A stretch of DNA of 64,000 nucleotides from Sulfobacillus sp. GTDB lineage: Bacteria; Bacillota; Sulfobacillia; Sulfobacillales; Sulfobacillaceae. The notes under the pieces are model-generated. The model had not been told where the DNA came from and did no database searches. It worked only from the letters and a program-made list of their open reading frames with translations. Numbering within the stretch: the first letter of the stretch is position 1; every line of letters begins with the position of its first letter. This document shows, piece after piece, positions 8,765 to 60,541 of the stretch. The position numbers and the translations under genes are program-made. The stretch covers positions 10,939-74,938 of the forward strand of contig DAHWJO010000001.1 of the NCBI GenBank assembly GCA_027344105.1, given 5' to 3'.

Positions 8765-8793
8765 TTGATTTTTCACGGGCTTCGTGGTACCTT
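8765..8793 (+). promoter_or_regulatory. sigma-A promoter of rplJL
   Basis: TTGATT-17bp-TACCTT with TGn. Confidence 0.55.
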
Positions 8794-8797
8794 TATT

Positions 8798-8913
8798 GCC
8801 GAACCCAAGACAGTGGGTGCCGGTCTCGGCTCAATATCCCGCTTAGGTAGAATTTCGGAGATGTTTTTTTGCTGAGCATATCCTCTGCCGTTCTTGGGTG
8901 GAGGTATTTTTTT
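8798..8913 (+). promoter_or_regulatory. L10 leader with attenuator
   Basis: AAGACAGTGGG..TCAATATCCCGCTTAGGT core; ACCCAAGA can pair with TCTTGGGT; terminator stem CCTCTGCC/GGTGGAGG followed by a T-run. Confidence 0.8.
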
Positions 8914-8932
8914 GTTTAAGGGGGGTGAATGT

Positions 8933-13725: not shown

Positions 13726-16700
13726 ATGTTAGATGTAAACCACTTTGACTCGATGCGCATTGCTCTGGCATCTCCTGAACAGATACGGGAATGGTCAAAA
13801 GGTGAAGTGAAAAAGCCGGAAACGATCAATTACCGGACACTGAAGCCTGAGCGTGAAGGACTGTTCTGCGAGAAGATTTTTGGACCGACCAAGGACTGGG
13901 AGTGCCATTGCGGAAAGTATAAGCGCGTTCGCTATAAAGGGGTGGTTTGCGACCGTTGCGGTGTGGAGGTCACGCGGTCTAAGGTGCGCCGGGAGCGCAT
14001 GGGCCACATAGAACTGGCCGCTCCCGTGTCCCACATCTGGTACTTCAAAGGCATCCCGTCGCGCATGGGCCTGATTCTGGACATGTCGCCCCGGGCCTTG
14101 GAGAAAGTGCTGTACTTTGCCGCTTATGTGGTCATTGAGCCGGGAACGACCCCGCTGATGAAAAAGCAGCTCCTGGTCGAGTCGGAATACCGGGAGTACC
14201 GGGAGAAGTATGGTTCCCATTTCCGCGCCGGCATGGGAGCGGAAGCGGTCAAAGAGCTGTTGGCGGAACTTGACCTGGAGGGTCTCTCGCAGGAACTGCG
14301 CGGGGAGCTCAACAGTTCGTCGGGCCAGCGCCGTATCCGCGCCATCCGCCGTCTGGAAGTGGTGGAGGCATTCCGGCAGTCGGGCAACCGTCCCGACTGG
14401 ATGATTCTTGATGTCATTCCGGTCATTCCCCCGGACCTGCGGCCCATGGTGCAACTTGACGGAGGGCGGTTTGCCACCTCCGATCTGAACGACCTGTACC
14501 GCCGGGTTATCAACCGCAACAACCGTCTCAAAAGGCTCTTGGACCTTGGCGCGCCGGACATTATTGTCCGAAACGAAAAGCGGATGCTGCAAGAGGCTGT
14601 TGATGCTCTGATTGACAACGGCCGCCGCGGCCGTCCGGTGACCGGTCCAGGCAACCGTCCCCTCAAGTCGCTGTCCGACATGCTGAAGGGCAAGCAGGGC
14701 CGGTTCCGCCAGAACCTTTTAGGGAAGCGGGTCGATTACTCGGGCCGTTCGGTGATTGTGGTGGGGCCGAAGCTGAAAATGCATCAGTGCGGTCTGCCTA
14801 AAGAGATGGCGCTTGAACTGTTCAAGCCGTTTGTGATGAAGAAGCTGGTGAACGAGGGCTATGCCCACAATATCAAATCCGCCAAGCGCATGGTGGAACG
14901 AGTCCGGCCCGAGGTCTGGGATGTGCTGGAAGACGTCATTAAAGAGCACCCCGTGCTCTTGAACCGGGCGCCAACTTTGCACCGCCTGGGAATTCAGGCC
15001 TTTGAGCCTGTGCTGGTGGAAGGCCGGGCGATTCAAATTCACCCGCTGGTCTGCACAGCCTACAACGCTGACTTTGATGGCGACCAAATGGCCGTGCATG
15101 TGCCGCTGTCGGCGGAGGCGCAGTCGGAAGCCCGCGTGCTGATGCTGTCGACGCAGAACATCCTCAACCCGAAAGACGGGCAGCCTGTGGTCACGCCGAC
15201 CCAGGACATGGTGCTGGGCTCCTACTACCTGACGATGGATAAAGAAAACGTCAAAGGCGAGGGCATGATCCTCGCTGACCTGGCCGAGGGCGAGATGGCC
15301 TATTCGCAGGGAGTACTGGATTTGCATGCCCGCATTACCATGCGCTATGACGGAGTCAAGCAGGTATCGACCCTGGGCCGCTTCCTCTTTAACGACGCGC
15401 TTCCGCAGGGACTGCGCTTCATTGACCACACGGTGGGCCGGAAGGCACTGGCCACTATTGTGGCCAATCTGTTCCGCACCTACGGCAACGATATCACTGC
15501 GGAGACGCTGGACCGGATCAAAGCCTTGGGCTTCAATTTCGCCACCAAGGCCGGAGTGACGATTGCGGTGTCGGATATCGTCATTCCCGGCGCCAAAAAG
15601 CAGATCCTCGCGGACGCGGAGGAAGAGGTGCTGCAGGTTACCCGTCAGTACCGCCGAGGCCTGATCACGGGGGACGAGAGGTATGAACGCGTCATCGGCA
15701 TCTGGACCCGGGCTAAGGAACGGGTGACTCAGGCGCTCATGGATACGCTGGACAAGAACAACTCGGTCTACATGATGGCGACGTCAGGGGCCCGTGGTAA
15801 CGTGCAGCAAATCTCACAGCTGGCGGGAATGCGCGGGCTGATGGCCGACCCGTCAGGACGCATTATCGAACTGCCAATCCGGGCAAACTTCCGGGAAGGG
15901 CTGACCGTGCTCGAATATTTCACGTCGACTCACGGCGCCCGCAAGGGACTCGCCGACACCGCGCTCCGGACCGCAGACTCGGGCTATCTGACGCGCCGCC
16001 TGGTGGACGTGGCCCAAGATGTGATTGTGCGGGAAATGGACTGCGGCACGACTCAGGGCACCCTGGTCTCGGAGATCAAAGACGGCGGGCAAACTATCGA
16101 GGGGCTCTATGACCGCTTGGTCGGGCGTGTGGTTCCCGAAGATGTGCGCCATCCGGAAACGGGCGCGCTGATTATCCAGGCCAACGAGATTATTATGGAG
16201 GATATTGCCCAGGAGATTGTGGATGCCGGGATTAAGGAACTGAGAGTCCGGTCTGTGCAGACGTGCCAGTCCAGGTTTGGCGTGTGTGTGGCCTGTTACG
16301 GCCGCAACCTGGCGCGCGGGGGCATCGTGGAGGTTGGTGAGGCCGTTGGCATCATCGCCGCCCAGAGCATCGGCGAACCGGGAACGCAGCTCACTATGCG
16401 CACCTTTCACATGGGCGGCGTGGCCGGGGACGACATCACCCAAGGTCTGCCCCGTGTTGAGGAGCTGTTTGAGGCGCGCAAGCCCAAAGGCCAGGCCATT
16501 ATTGCGGAGGCGTCCGGAACCGTGAAGATCGGTGAAAACAAGGGACGCCGTGAAATCACCGTCATTCACGATGAGCAGAGCGAGGCCCAGGCCTATATGG
16601 TCCCATTCGGCTCCCGCATCAAGGTGCATGACGGGGACCACATCGCAGAGGGTGGGGAGCTGACCGAAGGCTCGGTCAACCCGCACGACCTCTTGCGGGT

Positions 16701-17199
16701 GCTCGGGCTCCGCGGGGTTCAGAACTACCTGCTTCAAGAAGTTCAGCGCGTCTACCGGCTGCAGGGTGTCGATATTAATGACAAGCACATTGAGGTCATG
16801 GTCCGCCAGATGATGCGGAAAGTGAAAATCGAGGAAGCCGGAGATACCGGGCTCCTTCCCGGCGCTTTGGTAGACCGGTTCGACTTTGAGGACCAGAACG
16901 CGGATGTGCTCATGCGCGGGGGCACCCCGGCAGTGGCTAAGCCCGTGGTTCTGGGAATCACCAAAGCCTCTCTGGCGACCGATTCGTTCCTGTCAGCGGC
17001 GTCTTTCCAAGAAACCACCCGGGTTCTGACCGAGGCCTCGATCAAGGCCAAGAGGGACCCGCTGCTTGGCCTCAAGGAAAACGTGATCATCGGCAAGCTG
17101 ATTCCAGCAGGCACAGGCATGTCGCGATATCGCAACGTGGTGATCGAAGGGGCGGACGACCCCGCGACGGCACCGTTCGAGAACGAACTGATCAAGTAG
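13726..17199 (+). CDS. rpoC: RNA polymerase beta' subunit
   Basis: 1157 aa; NADFDGD active site, Zn-binding Cys motifs. Confidence 0.99.
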
Positions 17200-35623: not shown

Positions 35624-36571
35624 ATGACCGAGGTTGAAAAGCCAGAAATTCGGCGGGTTGACGATGGCGCCGACGCAAATTACGGTGAATTTGCAGTGGA
35701 ACCGCTAAACCGGGGCTATGGCATTACGCTCGGAAACTCGCTGCGGCGGATACTCCTGTCGTCCTTGCCGGGGACTGCTGTCACATCAGTGCGGATTGAT
35801 GGGGTGTTGCATGAGTTTTCCGTGGTGCCGGGAGTGCTTGAGGATACAGCGGATATCATCCTCAATCTCAAACGGCTGGCCCTACGGCTGTGGTCTGACG
35901 AGCCTCACAGTTTGCGCATTGACAAAGAGGGGCCCTGTGAGGTGGTCGCAGGCGATATTATCGGCGACGCCGATGTGGATATTTTAGACCCGGAGCAGCA
36001 TATTGCCTTCGTCGATGAGGGCAGTGCGCTGCGCATGGAGCTGAATATCGAGCGGGGCCGCGGGTACGTGTCAGCCGACAAAAACAAACGTGCGGACCAA
36101 GCCATCGGGGTCATCCCTGTGGACTCCATTTTCAGCCCAGTCACTAAGGTCAACTGGCGGGTGGAGGACACGCGGGTAGGCCATATTACCGACTATGACC
36201 GCCTTCTGGTCGAGGTGTGGACGGATGGGTCGCTGAGCCCCGAAGAAGCGATCTCACGGGGGGCCAAAATCCTTTCAGATCACCTGAAGCTGTTTATGGA
36301 GCTGACAGATTCCGGGTCCGGCATCGAAATCGGGGCCCAAAGAGATGAAGATTCCCGTGACAGACTGCTGGAAATGCCTATTGAAGAACTAGACTTGTCT
36401 GTTCGGTCCTTCAACTGCCTCAAGCGGGCAGGGATCAATACCGTAGGGGAACTGACAAACAAGACGGATGACGATATGATGAAGGTCAGAAATCTTGGTA
36501 AAAAGTCCCTGGAGGAAGTCAAGGAAAAATTAGTGGCTTTAGGGGTTGGCCTCAAGCCGACTGAAGAGTAG
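35624..36571 (+). CDS. rpoA: RNA polymerase alpha subunit
   Basis: [24 protein letters not shown]. Confidence 0.99.
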
Positions 36572-57532: not shown

Positions 57533-57560
57533 AGGCCCACACTTGTGGGCCTATTTTTTT
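57533..57560 (+). terminator. Intrinsic terminator after argF
   Basis: AGGCCCACA/TGTGGGCCT plus T7. Confidence 0.85.
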
Positions 57561-57691: not shown

Positions 57692-58135
57692 ATGGTACAT
57701 CTATCATCCGTCTACCGGAAGCTGGAAGAGGGATCGAAACGGCTGACTCCCCAGCGGGAGCTTGTGATCCGCATATTTTCAGAACACCCCGGGGAACACC
57801 TTTCCGCGGAGGAAGTGCACCAGCTCGTCAAGAAGAAATTCCAGGATATCGGACTGGCCACCGTATACCGGTCACTGGAACTGTTGACGCAGCTGGAAAT
57901 CCTGACCCGCATCAATTTTGACGACGGACGGTCCCGGTATGAGTTCAATCAGGAGGAAACGCACCGCCACCACCATCTGGTGTGTGTGCGCTGCGGACGC
58001 GTGGAGGAATACGGTGAAGACTTGCTGGACACCCTTGAAACACGGATCCTGAACGAGCGCGGCTTTGCGGTTTTGGATCATGAACTCAAATTTTACGGGG
58101 TATGCCGCGCGTGCGCTCTAAAAAAGAAAAACTGA
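57692..58135 (+). CDS. fur: Ferric uptake regulator family protein
   Basis: RLTPQR, GLATVYR, HHHLVC..C, HELKFYGVC..C. Confidence 0.92.
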   Translation: MVHLSSVYRKLEEGSKRLTPQRELVIRIFSEHPGEHLSAEEVHQLVKKKFQDIGLATVYRSLELLTQLEILTRINFDDGRSRYEFNQEETHRHHHLVCVRCGRVEEYGEDLLDTLETRILNERGFAVLDHELKFYGVCRACALKKKN

Positions 58136-58153
58136 GAGAGAGGAGGAGATCTG

Positions 58154-58510
58154 GTGACGAGACTGTTTTGCTATAAGCGGTGAAGCACGTGTGCCAAAGC
58201 GCGAGCGTGGCTCAGCGCACACCAGGTGGAGGCGGCGGAGCGGGACCTCATCTTAGAGCCGCTCAGTGCAGACGAGGTTAGCGCGCTGGCGGCTGAAGCC
58301 GGGGGAGTTGGTGCGCTGCTTTCCAAAAAAAGTCCGGCCTATAAAATACATCAACCGCTCGTCCAGACGGAACAGGACTGGATCCGCGCGATGGCGCAGG
58401 AGCCCCGCCTGATCCGCCGCCCCGTGTGGCAGATTGGCCGCCGGTGGCTCATCGGATTTCAGCCCGATGCGTGGCAGGCAGCCTTGGACGAGGAGACAGC
58501 GGACCGCTGA
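58154..58510 (+). CDS. ArsC/Spx-family thioredoxin-fold protein with in-frame UGA (candidate selenoprotein, UxxC)
   Basis: SD GAGGAGGAG, GTG 58154; MTRLFCYKR*STCAKARAWL...EPRLIRRP...LIGF; TGA 58181-58183 at the first Cys of CxxC. Confidence 0.8.
58189..58222 (+). promoter_or_regulatory. Candidate bacterial SECIS element
   Basis: GUGU/ACAC, GCGC/GCGC and GAGC/GCUC stems with apical loop GUG 23 nt after the UGA. Confidence 0.65.
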
Positions 58511-58526: not shown

Positions 58527-59615
58527 TCAAATTCCCCTGTAGGATCCCCAGTAGGCGTCCTCCGGGTAGCCGCGCTGTTCCCAATAGCCCAGAATATCCC
58601 GGTCCGACCATGATATCCGGACGAGCCATTTCAGCGATTTGTAGCCATACATCCGGGGCACCAGCAGGCGCAGAGGGTAGCCTTGGGACTGGGCCAAGGG
58701 GCGGGAATCGAGCTCATAGGCGAGCAGCGGCCGGTAGGCGGCGATTTGCCGGGCGCTTAAGGATTCCGTATAGACACCGTCTCCGGAATAAAAGAGGATC
58801 CATGGAGTGCGGCGGGGATCCCATCCTTGCGATAATAGAAACCGCGAGAGGTCAATCCCCGTCACTTCGACGCCGTCTACGGCCCACCCTGTCACGCACT
58901 GAAAGTCGATGTGGCGCTGTTCCGGCCCGAATCGGCGCAACTGCGGCAGGGTGTACTGGGCAGATCCTGCCCCACCCCTGTCCAGGGTCAGGCGCCATGT
59001 ATCGACAGAGAGGTCTGGATAGCCACCGACCACGGTATAGGGGACAAAACCGGGCAGAGCTCCCGAATTGCGGCCTCTGTGAAACACTCTGCCGCTCACC
59101 ATCGTCAACACACTGGGGACGGCCAGCAGGAAGGGCGCTGTGGCCGCCGTGGCCGCCAGCCACCTGAGTGCGCGCCGGCGGGACACATCTACTTTGGGGG
59201 AGGCGGGTTTCCCTGCCGCTCTTGGCCGGTGCGCCACCAAATGGTAGGCTACCCACAGCACAAAGCCTGCGGCGCTGGCGGCGTGGACGACAGTCGCAAT
59301 CGCCCGCGTTGAGGATGGGCCGACCAGCAGTCCGACGCCGCTGGCCAATAGCAGGACCAAGAAAAACAGAGCCCACCGCCCCAAGGCAGGGGCCCTTTGG
59401 GAGTTTGGCGAATGGGCAGGCCGCGGGTAAAAGCGCGCAGACCAGCCCGCCAAAGCCGCGCCGTAGAGCACCCCTCCCCATTCGTGCACAGCCTGTACCG
59501 CCGGCATGAACGGCCCCAGAGCGCTGCGCCAACTGGCCAGGTACAAGCTGAATCCTGTGGCTGCCAATAACCCGACAATGATTGCGTGCCGCCAGTGGCG
59601 CTGGGAAAAGGACAA
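58527..59615 (-). CDS. Membrane cytochrome-b-like domain fused to a sulfite-oxidase/MsrP-type molybdopterin domain, with internal Tat motif
   Basis: Four His-bearing TM helices, SRRRALRWL, DFQCVTGW (Mo ligand Cys), GYPLRL.VP..YGYKS.KW, GYWE.RGY. Confidence 0.9.
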   Translation of the reverse strand: MSFSQRHWRHAIIVGLLAATGFSLYLASWRSALGPFMPAVQAVHEWGGVLYGAALAGWSARFYPRPAHSPNSQRAPALGRWALFFLVLLLASGVGLLVGPSSTRAIATVVHAASAAGFVLWVAYHLVAHRPRAAGKPASPKVDVSRRRALRWLAATAATAPFLLAVPSVLTMVSGRVFHRGRNSGALPGFVPYTVVGGYPDLSVDTWRLTLDRGGAGSAQYTLPQLRRFGPEQRHIDFQCVTGWAVDGVEVTGIDLSRFLLSQGWDPRRTPWILFYSGDGVYTESLSARQIAAYRPLLAYELDSRPLAQSQGYPLRLLVPRMYGYKSLKWLVRISWSDRDILGYWEQRGYPEDAYWGSYRGI

Positions 59616-59701: not shown

Positions 59702-60541
59702 TCAAGCCCAGTGGTCGGGGCTGATAAAGTGGTCAAACACGAGACGGGTGAGACGGGGCAAGATTCGCTGAGCTTCGTTGTCGATGTGAAACCGCAAATC
59801 TTGGCAGCCGGCGCTCAGCAGGGCCACCGTGTAGTCGCCCCAGGGAGACTGGACAATGCCGACGTCGTTGCGAATTCCTTCCAGCGACCCGCTCTTGCTT
59901 CCAATTTGCACAGGGGCTGGCTGTCCAGCCTCTTCGTCCAGCAGGGCATAGGGCAGATCCCGGGTCATGAGAGTATTGTACTGCTGGCGGGTCAGGATAT
60001 CCCACATGACGTCACAGGCCCAGGGACTGACCAGCGTGCGGTCGTGCAGGCGCTTTAGCAGTGCGGACAGTTCATCGGCGCGCGCCAGTCCAATGGGGCC
60101 GGGCGCCGTGAAGTCAATGCGCTTGAAAATCTGAATGTGCGGGAAAGACCATGCCTGCATGGCAGCATTGACCGTCTCGAGTCCCACCAGGCGCAGCACC
60201 ATGTTGGTGGCGGTGTTGTCGCTTACGGTAATCATGAGCATCAATGCGTCGTGGAGGGAGAGGGACAGCCCCGGGGTCAGATTTTGCACAACCCCTGATC
60301 CTTCCACAAGATCCGCTTCCTGCAACACGAGGTCCATGGCCAGGTCAAGATGGCGCTCCTCAATCTGCTGCATGACGGCGGCAAGTACCGGCAGTTTGAT
60401 AACGGAGGCAGTTTCCATGAGCAGGGAGGGCTGAAACCGGATGACCTCGTGTGTCTCCATGTGTTCTGCGTATAGGCTGATGCGGCCGGAAAAATTTTGG
60501 GCCACCTGTGCGATGGCGCGGTCGAGATCACTGGAGGGCAT
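59702..60541 (-). CDS. Cytoplasmic serine hydrolase of class-A beta-lactamase fold
   Basis: SVIK (SxxK), SDN and KSG motifs; no signal peptide. Confidence 0.85.
   Translation of the reverse strand: MPSSDLDRAIAQVAQNFSGRISLYAEHMETHEVIRFQPSLLMETASVIKLPVLAAVMQQIEERHLDLAMDLVLQEADLVEGSGVVQNLTPGLSLSLHDALMLMITVSDNTATNMVLRLVGLETVNAAMQAWSFPHIQIFKRIDFTAPGPIGLARADELSALLKRLHDRTLVSPWACDVMWDILTRQQYNTLMTRDLPYALLDEEAGQPAPVQIGSKSGSLEGIRNDVGIVQSPWGDYTVALLSAGCQDLRFHIDNEAQRILPRLTRLVFDHFISPDHWA

Follow-up and report, generated by a model that had tools for sequence, protein, structure and literature searches.

Selenoproteins related to the arsenate reductase ArsC are of a kind that is already known. The relevant passages of Zhang et al. 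2006 (PMC1794560) report "ArsC-like" selenoproteins, and those of Zhang and Gladyshev 2008 (PMC2398784) name "Arsenate reductase 1 (UxxS)" and "Arsenate reductase 2 (UxxC, cd03032 ArsC_Spx)" from ocean metagenomes, with U denoting selenocysteine (Sec). In Table S3 of Peng et al. 2016 (PMC5029168), two ArsC-like families of UxxC type are counted in 14 and 12 sequenced organisms, the 14 belonging to "Arsenate reductase 2, UxxC", and ArsC-like selenoprotein families are tabulated again in a 2022 review. Here, we analyze a gene of this kind in a 64,000-nucleotide (nt) stretch of Sulfobacillus sp. DNA (GenBank assembly GCA_027344105.1, contig DAHWJO010000001.1, positions 10,939 to 74,938, forward strand), which in its full length we call the window. 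The gene lies at 58154-58510 on the plus strand, directly behind the gene for a Fur-family regulator (fur), and contains one in-frame TGA. We conclude with high confidence that selenocysteine is inserted at this UGA (58181-58183), and with nearly the same confidence that 58154-58510 is an intact selenoprotein gene misannotated as a truncated one.

The closest described system is "Arsenate reductase 2, UxxC" (cd03032), beside which we set the window gene by the published family description. As described, that family has the ArsC/Spx fold, places Sec first in UxxC where homologs carry CxxC, and was likewise predicted from a conserved TGA, cysteine (Cys) homologs, and a selenocysteine insertion sequence (SECIS). 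We would class the window gene as a member of this known kind that is new or, at the least, so far unannotated. A preliminary description of the locus, made from its sequence alone, had rated it as highly novel, an estimate that does not hold up against the UxxC and UxxS ArsC-like families already in print. Three features appear modestly new, being absent from the pertinent passages and supplementary tables of those papers: an invariant pairing with fur, a near-invariant GAGC-GUG-GCUC SECIS laid over the codons of an ARAWL peptide and accompanied by a series of its decay, and a clade that has Sec and no Cys. The other systems relevant here are Spx of Bacillus subtilis (YjbD/SpxA), a thiol-stress regulator that binds the carboxy-terminal domain of the RNA polymerase alpha subunit (alpha-CTD); YffB (PA3664, PDB 1RW1), a putative thiol reductase of the ArsC family whose own function is poorly defined; and ArsC of E. 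coli/R773.

An in-frame TGA conserved behind fur

Read directly, a 119-codon frame extends from GTG 58154 to the TGA at 58508-58510, with a single internal TGA (58181-58183) that falls on the first Cys of a CxxC motif. Its frame 1 translation begins VTRLFCYKR*STCAKARAWL, placing the internal TGA between LFCYKR and STCAKARAWL. With that codon decoded as selenocysteine, the product is 118 amino acids long, has an Spx/ArsC-related fold, and carries Sec at residue 10 in a U-S-T-C motif, at the position of Cys10 in Spx and Cys12 in ArsC. A Shine-Dalgarno sequence, GGAGG (58142-58146, plus strand), stands 7 nt 5' of the GTG. A mechanical list of open reading frames (ORFs) opens the gene instead at GTG 58226, as a 94-amino-acid ORF. 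Reassignment of TGA in the genetic code was rejected, because TGA otherwise behaves as an ordinary stop in this host, terminating both fur and the Sec gene itself. The preliminary description had named the Shine-Dalgarno sequence, the GTG at 58154, the 118-residue product, the lone TGA at the first Cys, and a hairpin 23 nt downstream with a GU-initiated loop, and all are present. Its central claim, that a hidden UxxC selenoprotein gene of the ArsC/Spx family resides here and escapes standard annotation, is supported by the conservation of TGA and hairpin in relatives, and by the truncated ORFs that gene callers and RefSeq list in its place.

The same in-frame TGA occurs in 22 distinct gene sequences, and the coding sequence to either side of it is conserved. 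Most of them come from separate species-level genomes within Sulfobacillus and related Bacillota, and one from a metagenome-assembled genome (MAG) of Dehalococcoidia; they share the motif x-[LF]-Y-x-Y-[KR]-[RK]-U-[STV]-[TS]-[CAS]. Across the seven codons 5' of the TGA, the pattern x-[LF]-Y-x-Y-[KR]-[RK] is kept while many synonymous codons are used. Further, every ortholog except the Dehalococcoidia one (L132) has a purine-rich GGAGG, GAGG, or GGGG before a start codon located 8-11 codons upstream of the TGA. In databases, the nearest homologs, five in number and 61-95% identical, appear without exception as N-terminally truncated ORFs of 90-94 amino acids. Their contigs all have TGA in frame at this codon, preceded by a Shine-Dalgarno sequence and by an ATG or GTG at a distance of 8-9 codons. 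Scanning DNA for TGA followed after 15 nt by the 15-nt core of the hairpin gave 81 matches. Of these, 17 are the Sec gene in other species-level genomes, among them several Bacillota MAGs from hot springs and sediments, S. benefaciens AMDSBA1 and AMDSBA4, and the one Dehalococcoidia MAG. A profile search returned 1245 relatives, headed by truncated ORFs of 80-106 amino acids (RefSeq entries of S. thermosulfidooxidans among them) mixed with full-length Cys forms and followed by bona fide Spx. Three of these truncated ORFs (L188, L190, and L191), picked blind to their DNA, again have an upstream start and an in-frame TGA.

Not every scan was productive. The first protein-based scan of genome contigs gave no matches, and an alignment-based scan, which used a peptide pattern with a Cys codon, recovered only distant Cys homologs and is useless as an unbiased test for Sec. 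A fragment from S. thermosulfidooxidans (P0042) scanned against genome contigs likewise gave no match, so that for this cultured species the TGA is presumed from truncated annotations alone. The entries in question (P0041, P0042, P0124, and P0129) are S. thermosulfidooxidans WP_053961123.1, WP_051351133.1, and PSR28481.1 and S. benefaciens PSR30581.1; they are N-terminally truncated, 80-92 amino acids long, and named "ArsC/Spx/MgsR family protein" or "arsenate reductase". These four are almost certainly the same selenoprotein, misannotated. Truncation affects all deposited products of the clade, and a selenoprotein label is missing from every one of them.

Contigs from four independent metagenomes carry no variant at the TGA codon, which reads TGA and never TGC or TGT; the sequencing error that the preliminary description had considered is thus not borne out. 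The only polymorphism nearby in those metagenomes is a synonymous A-to-G change at 58198. In one run (X1), contigs from other species match the window only across 58168-58213, that is, over the TGA and the hairpin. This mine-drainage metagenome contains at least three other organisms with such a TGA-plus-hairpin island, one of which reads MTQLYCYRR before the TGA, matching the L136 type.

Natural pairs of Sec and Cys forms accompany the conserved codon. Specifically, an ortholog with TGC (P0012/L186) reads MNQFLEYSK-C-VTCKKARAWL, and two loci with the same fur context (L071 and L094) read MNQFLEYSK-U-VTCKKARAWL. The Dehalococcoidia Sec form also has a Cys counterpart (P0036), and more distant homologs, including those of Alicyclobacillus and lactobacilli as well as Spx, have CxxC at the Sec position. 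In a sister clade (L001, L006, L007, L009, L096, L106, and L191), U-[ST]-T-[AS] replaces U-x-x-C. The L001 product has no cysteines at all, leaving selenocysteine as its sole redox-active residue. Separately, a Sec gene with the same apical SECIS sequence is present in the Dehalococcoidia MAG (L132) and on a 2.3-Mb contig (L190), and fur adjoins neither; this suggests either that gene and SECIS were transferred together horizontally or that constraint on them was convergent.

The candidate SECIS hairpin and the selenocysteine machinery

A candidate bacterial SECIS hairpin occupies 58199-58218 (plus strand), overlapping the codons for Ala16-Arg-Ala-Trp-Leu-Ser-Ala22. It consists of a 5' arm (GCGCGAGC, 58199-58206), a GUG loop (58207-58209), and a 3' arm (GCUC-A-GCGC, 58210-58218), with a folding energy of -11.8 kcal/mol. 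The stem begins 15 nt, and the loop 23 nt, after the UGA. This spacing, together with a loop starting G-U, fits the bacterial SECIS model reportedly drawn up by Zhang and Gladyshev in 2005, as well as SelB-SECIS structures.

The significance of the hairpin rests on comparative data, not on folding energy. At the fixed spacing, TGA plus hairpin core occurs once in the window, against 0.05 expected. The 15 nt GCG CGA GCG TGG CTC are identical in the protein-found members, which are about 60% identical to the window protein, and the synonymous sites of other conserved peptide motifs in those genes differ. CGA accounts for 3% of the Arg codons in the window genes, and Cys homologs with the same ARAWL peptide use GCG CGG GCG TGG CTC or GCG CGG GCC TGG CTT. 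In three protein-found members, compensatory changes keep the stem and the GUG loop: L188 forms GCGAAAGC-GUG-GCUUUCGC, whose eight pairs are all perfect and include two in which G-C or C-G has become A-U; L191 forms CACGAGC-GUG-GCUCGUG; and L190 forms GUG(A)GAGC-GUG-GCUC-CAC. In an ungapped 21-sequence alignment, 75.6% of cells are paired, compared with 30-42% in slid registers, and three pairs show double-sided changes, a number reached by 0 of 500 shuffles. The TGC ortholog L186 uses GCG CGA GCA TGG TTG over the same peptide, so that the first loop G is gone and the 3' arm is broken. The hairpin thus behaves like a SECIS, being conserved, covarying, and degraded in the Cys ortholog. A simple nonsense mutation, which the preliminary description had also considered, is not what these patterns show, given that relatives keep both TGA and hairpin and that it is the Cys ortholog that loses the latter.

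Several points weigh against this reading. First, 13 of the 22 sequences were found by a DNA pattern that fixes the 5' arm of the hairpin, so that most of the apparent invariance among those 13 is ascertainment, and independent support for the hairpin comes from about nine sequences found via their proteins, together with the compensatory variants and the Cys controls. Second, the hairpin alone is thermodynamically unremarkable (z -1.5; +0.9 in a 73-nt context), matches no Rfam family at gathering or E-value thresholds, and overlaps the codons of a conserved peptide, ARAWL. Third, the 64-kb window contains no tRNA genes, tRNA-Sec included, and the support for Sec machinery in the host is at genus level and from the literature. 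Finally, the metatranscriptome runs gave no contigs on fur or on the 5' part of the Sec gene that holds the UGA and SECIS; its 3' end alone, from 58405, is covered by two 151-nt contigs of low depth, and the RNA status of their run is uncertain.

As for the machinery itself, none of selA, selB, selC, and selD lies within the 64-kb window, and ARAGORN, run over 1.9 Mb of collected loci, found one tRNA-Sec, in an unrelated Roseiflexaceae chance match. The supplements of the Sulfobacillus genome paper make no mention of sel genes. At the level of the genus, both S. acidophilus and S. thermosulfidooxidans count as Sec users, with 7-8 selenoproteins, in Table S2 of Peng et al. 2016 (PMC5029168). 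Justice et al. 2014 (PMC4378227) report formate dehydrogenase with Sec from every Sulfobacillus genome, the AMDSBA bins among them, and the proteome of S. thermotolerans contained the selenoprotein PrxU (PMC7409299). Two of those AMDSBA bins contain the Sec gene described here.

These data bear most directly on the alternative that survives best, in which a near-cognate Trp or Cys tRNA reads through the UGA without selenium and the hairpin is a generic stimulator of read-through. Knowledge of the Sec machinery at the genus level only leaves room for this, as does the existence of Cys orthologs, from which Cys appears functionally acceptable at the site. However, the hairpin geometry (15 nt, 23 nt, loop G then U) fits the bacterial SECIS model, the genus is documented as Sec-decoding, and the change from UGA to TGC goes with loss of the hairpin, as in known Sec/Cys families. 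We therefore consider selenium-free read-through improbable.

Under the selenocysteine reading, ribosomes would start at GTG 58154, probably on the fur mRNA, and the hairpin at 58199-58218 would recruit SelB with Sec-tRNA(Sec) to the UGA at 58181-58183, where selenocysteine would be inserted in place of termination.

Family, fold, and possible function

With U read as C, the window protein scores 47.1 bits against Pfam ArsC (PF03960), above the gathering threshold of 24. Among NCBIfam models, TIGR01617 (Spx/MgsR) ranks first for 14 of 14 members tested, its lowest E-value being 7e-26. In sequence comparison with the PDB, B. subtilis Spx comes out on top (1.6e-13), ahead of YffB (2.8e-11) and ArsC-like chains (about 1e-5). 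The structure was modeled with AlphaFold2 from the natural Cys ortholog P0012, standing in for the window protein; this model has a mean confidence (pLDDT) of 95.5 and template-modeling (TM) scores of 0.86-0.87 to Spx and YffB, and the fold search did not separate an Spx-like from a YffB-like protein.

Spx is the best match in both sequence and structure. U10 and C13 align with its C10 and C13, and KARAWL, EPLS, LxSxxS, and LIRRP are common to both proteins. In contrast to Spx, Sec replaces Cys10, the window protein ends at about residue 118 without a C-terminal tail, and the sister clade lacks the second Cys. YffB resembles the window protein in its length (about 115 amino acids), its lack of a C-terminal tail, and its TM score of 0.86.

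On the protein side, too, there are observations that pull away from a firm assignment. The window protein falls under the cut-off of every NCBIfam subfamily model: 62.2 bits against 75.05 for TIGR01617, 55.2 against 123 for NF002459 (Spx), 33.2 against 85 for NF041106 ("ArsC family (seleno)protein", for which the best of 14 members reaches E 6.5e-9), 32 against 121 for NF008107 (YffB), and 28.4 against 106 for TIGR00014 (arsenate reductase). Moreover, the family lacks the C-terminal tail of Spx: its members end 0-9 residues after the last shared helix, and the extension of about 12-15 residues that Spx uses for proteolytic control is absent from the family (alignment A6). A Gly aligned with Spx Gly52 is present in the window protein and is not invariant across the family, and the position of Spx Arg60 is occupied by Lys, Arg, Thr, or Gln.

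The sister clade bears on the chemistry. The counterpart of the CxxC redox switch is UxxC in the clade of the window gene and UxxA/S in the sister clade, which has the same fur context and no Cys anywhere, and because of this, Sec is the only universally conserved redox residue. As judged from these alignments, this argues for Sec as a nucleophile that would be resolved by an external thiol, over an obligatory intramolecular switch of the CxxC type. In the host RpoA (rpoA, 35624-36571), the alpha-CTD at 36380-36430 reads RSFNCLK, compared with RSYNCLK in B. subtilis. The Phe stands in place of Tyr263, the residue contacted by B. subtilis Spx. This observation, which would matter if the Sec protein bound RNA polymerase, is neither for nor against such Spx-like binding.

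What the protein does can accordingly be stated only in graded terms. We give about an even chance to a thiol/disulfide oxidoreductase or redox relay that would act through its selenol and together with Fur. We regard a true Spx-like regulator that binds RNA polymerase as somewhat less likely. More tentative still is a composite proposal, in which an RNA polymerase-binding regulator of Spx type would sense through selenocysteine, be co-translated with Fur, and owe its SECIS to exaptation of a hairpin latent in the ARAWL codons.

The predicted 118-residue product is of Spx type, combining a thioredoxin-like fold with a helical domain inserted into it. Sec10 lies at the N-terminal end of helix 1, exactly at the place of Cys10 in Spx and Cys12 in ArsC, and in the mechanism we propose it would serve as the redox nucleophile. 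In the U-x-x-C clade, which includes the window gene, cycling may proceed via a Sec10-Cys13 selenenylsulfide, while in the sister U-x-x-A/S clade Sec10 would have to be resolved by an external thiol, because the protein has no Cys.

A Sec-dependent, glutaredoxin-coupled arsenate reductase was the first of the two functions that the preliminary description had offered, and it is the next alternative to be weighed. The Pfam ArsC fold, the presence of Sec at the position of the catalytic Cys12, the name "arsenate reductase" on truncated ORFs in several databases, and an arsenic-rich habitat all speak for it. Against it stand the TIGR00014 score (28 bits versus 106), PDB matches to ArsC about eight orders of magnitude weaker than to Spx, and the absence of arsR, arsB, and acr3 near the Sec gene, which thus has no ars operon. 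Further, the catalytic set of R773 ArsC is Cys12 with the triad Arg60, Arg94, and Arg107. In the alignment with E. coli ArsC (NC_000913.3), Cys12 corresponds to Sec10, Arg60 to Ser57, Arg94 to Arg89, and Arg107 to Phe102, so that Arg94 alone of the triad is kept, and the Ser57 and Phe102 replacements match the condition in Spx. Because two of the three catalytic arginines are missing, an arsenate reductase appears very unlikely from sequence comparison, and this part of the preliminary description is not sustained.

Slightly less credible again is the possibility that the real product is the 94-amino-acid ORF from GTG 58226, with the nine upstream codons forming a separate leader peptide, at which termination and reinitiation would couple translation to that of fur. 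That ORF is present in the ORF list, and short upstream ORFs can be regulatory. However, inspection of the sequence before GTG 58226 shows no Shine-Dalgarno sequence, and the downstream start is not conserved, the choices of gene callers varying by species to give products of 80-106 amino acids. Between the TGA and 58226, 14 codons specify in frame the helix-1 motif xTCxKARAWL that the family conserves, and the nine upstream codons encode strand beta-1; judging from the model, neither the active site nor a complete fold core would remain in a product without beta-1 and alpha-1. The weakest alternative, a nonsense mutation or a miscalled base in an ordinary CxxC ArsC/Spx gene, has for it that a lone in-frame stop in one assembly is the usual signature of a pseudogene or assembly error and that gene callers and RefSeq treat the gene as truncated, but it is effectively refuted by conservation of the TGA, which persists in the 22 distinct sequences at protein identities down to 30-60% and without variant in the four metagenomes, with substitutions 5' of it preserving the peptide pattern and with Shine-Dalgarno sequences and start codons retained.

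Genomic context and meaning for Sulfobacillus

The gene immediately upstream, fur (57692-58135, plus strand), encodes a 147-amino-acid regulator closest to Bacillus-type Fur, with 130 bits to Pfam FUR, 176 bits to NCBIfam NF051892 (below its cut-off of 220), and 91 bits to PerR. It ends in TGA, and the GTG of the Sec gene follows 18 nt after this stop, the distance given in the preliminary description. All 21 Bacillota loci for which flanking sequence is available have fur as the next gene upstream, in the same orientation, with Fur identities of 40-99%. In the L001 clade the fur stop and the Sec-gene start overlap as ATGA, and in L186 fur and the ortholog overlap by 17 nt. Co-transcription of fur and the Sec gene, as proposed in the preliminary description, is strongly suggested by this arrangement, and the two genes are very probably co-expressed. 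A terminator-like hairpin after argF, the ornithine carbamoyltransferase (OTCase) gene, at 57533-57552 on the plus strand (8-bp stem with six G-C pairs, followed by the T-run ATTTTTTTGT) is likely the upstream boundary of the fur/Sec-gene transcription unit.

Downstream, a convergent gene (58527-59615, minus strand) encodes a 362-amino-acid molybdoenzyme that combines an N-terminal multi-helix membrane region, with a weak match of cytochrome b561 type, and an Oxidored_molyb domain (MsrP/SoxC/SorA type), and beside it lies a class A beta-lactamase-like gene (59702-60541, minus strand). The preliminary description had the Sec gene facing a molybdenum (Mo)-enzyme operon, and the convergent molybdoenzyme gene is real. 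The pair separates the Sec gene from moeA only in the window and its closest relative, L010, and because it is absent from other syntenic loci, it looks like a recent insertion. In other members, the convergent neighbors are moeA-mobB-mobA or moaA, within a syntenic block of L13-S9-cwlD-arginase-M20-fur. A functional Mo link was rejected, since the molybdoenzyme pair is an insertion shared by the window and L010, and moeA, mobB, and mobA are convergent neighbors in a long, conserved block of genes. The link among iron, selenium, molybdenum, and arsenic drawn in the preliminary description was, on these grounds, an over-reading.

The nearest genome is the MAG Sulfobacillus sp. clean5091, with 96-99% protein identity across fur, the Sec gene, moeA, and the M20 hydrolase, and window DNA is present in mine-drainage, mine-tailings, and sediment metagenomes, in keeping with the acid-mine organism that had been supposed. 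The remainder of the window comprises rpoBC and a block of ribosomal protein genes with rpoA. A ribosomal protein L10 leader (Rfam RF00557, 51.7 bits) lies at 8786-8919 (plus strand) ahead of rplJ, as expected for a ribosomal/rpoBC block. In several hot-spring Bacillota relatives (L001, at 14747-17042, and also L002-L006), a ferritin-like gene is followed by a Linocin_M18 (encapsulin) shell gene about 5 kb downstream, which looks like an iron-storage encapsulin system near the fur locus.

Our results refine existing knowledge and overturn nothing. Their most immediate consequence is for annotation: members of this clade, deposited as truncated "arsenate reductase", "ArsC/Spx/MgsR family protein", or "hypothetical protein" entries of 80-106 amino acids, call for re-annotation as selenoproteins of full length, with the name arsenate reductase dropped, and this extends to the cultured bioleaching species S. 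thermosulfidooxidans and S. benefaciens. Further, the GAGC-GUG-GCUC SECIS is built from peptide-motif codons that Cys-containing Spx proteins also carry. The Sec forms, the compensatory variants, and the decayed Cys ortholog therefore offer a natural series for the origin and decay of a SECIS. Were the tentative composite proposal true, the protein would be the first selenoprotein transcription factor, and through it the control of iron in iron-oxidizing acidophiles would be coupled to a redox switch made ultra-sensitive by its selenol. Short of that, the pairing with fur and the clade with Sec and no Cys point to a selenium-dependent redox step attached to iron regulation in these iron and sulfur oxidizers.

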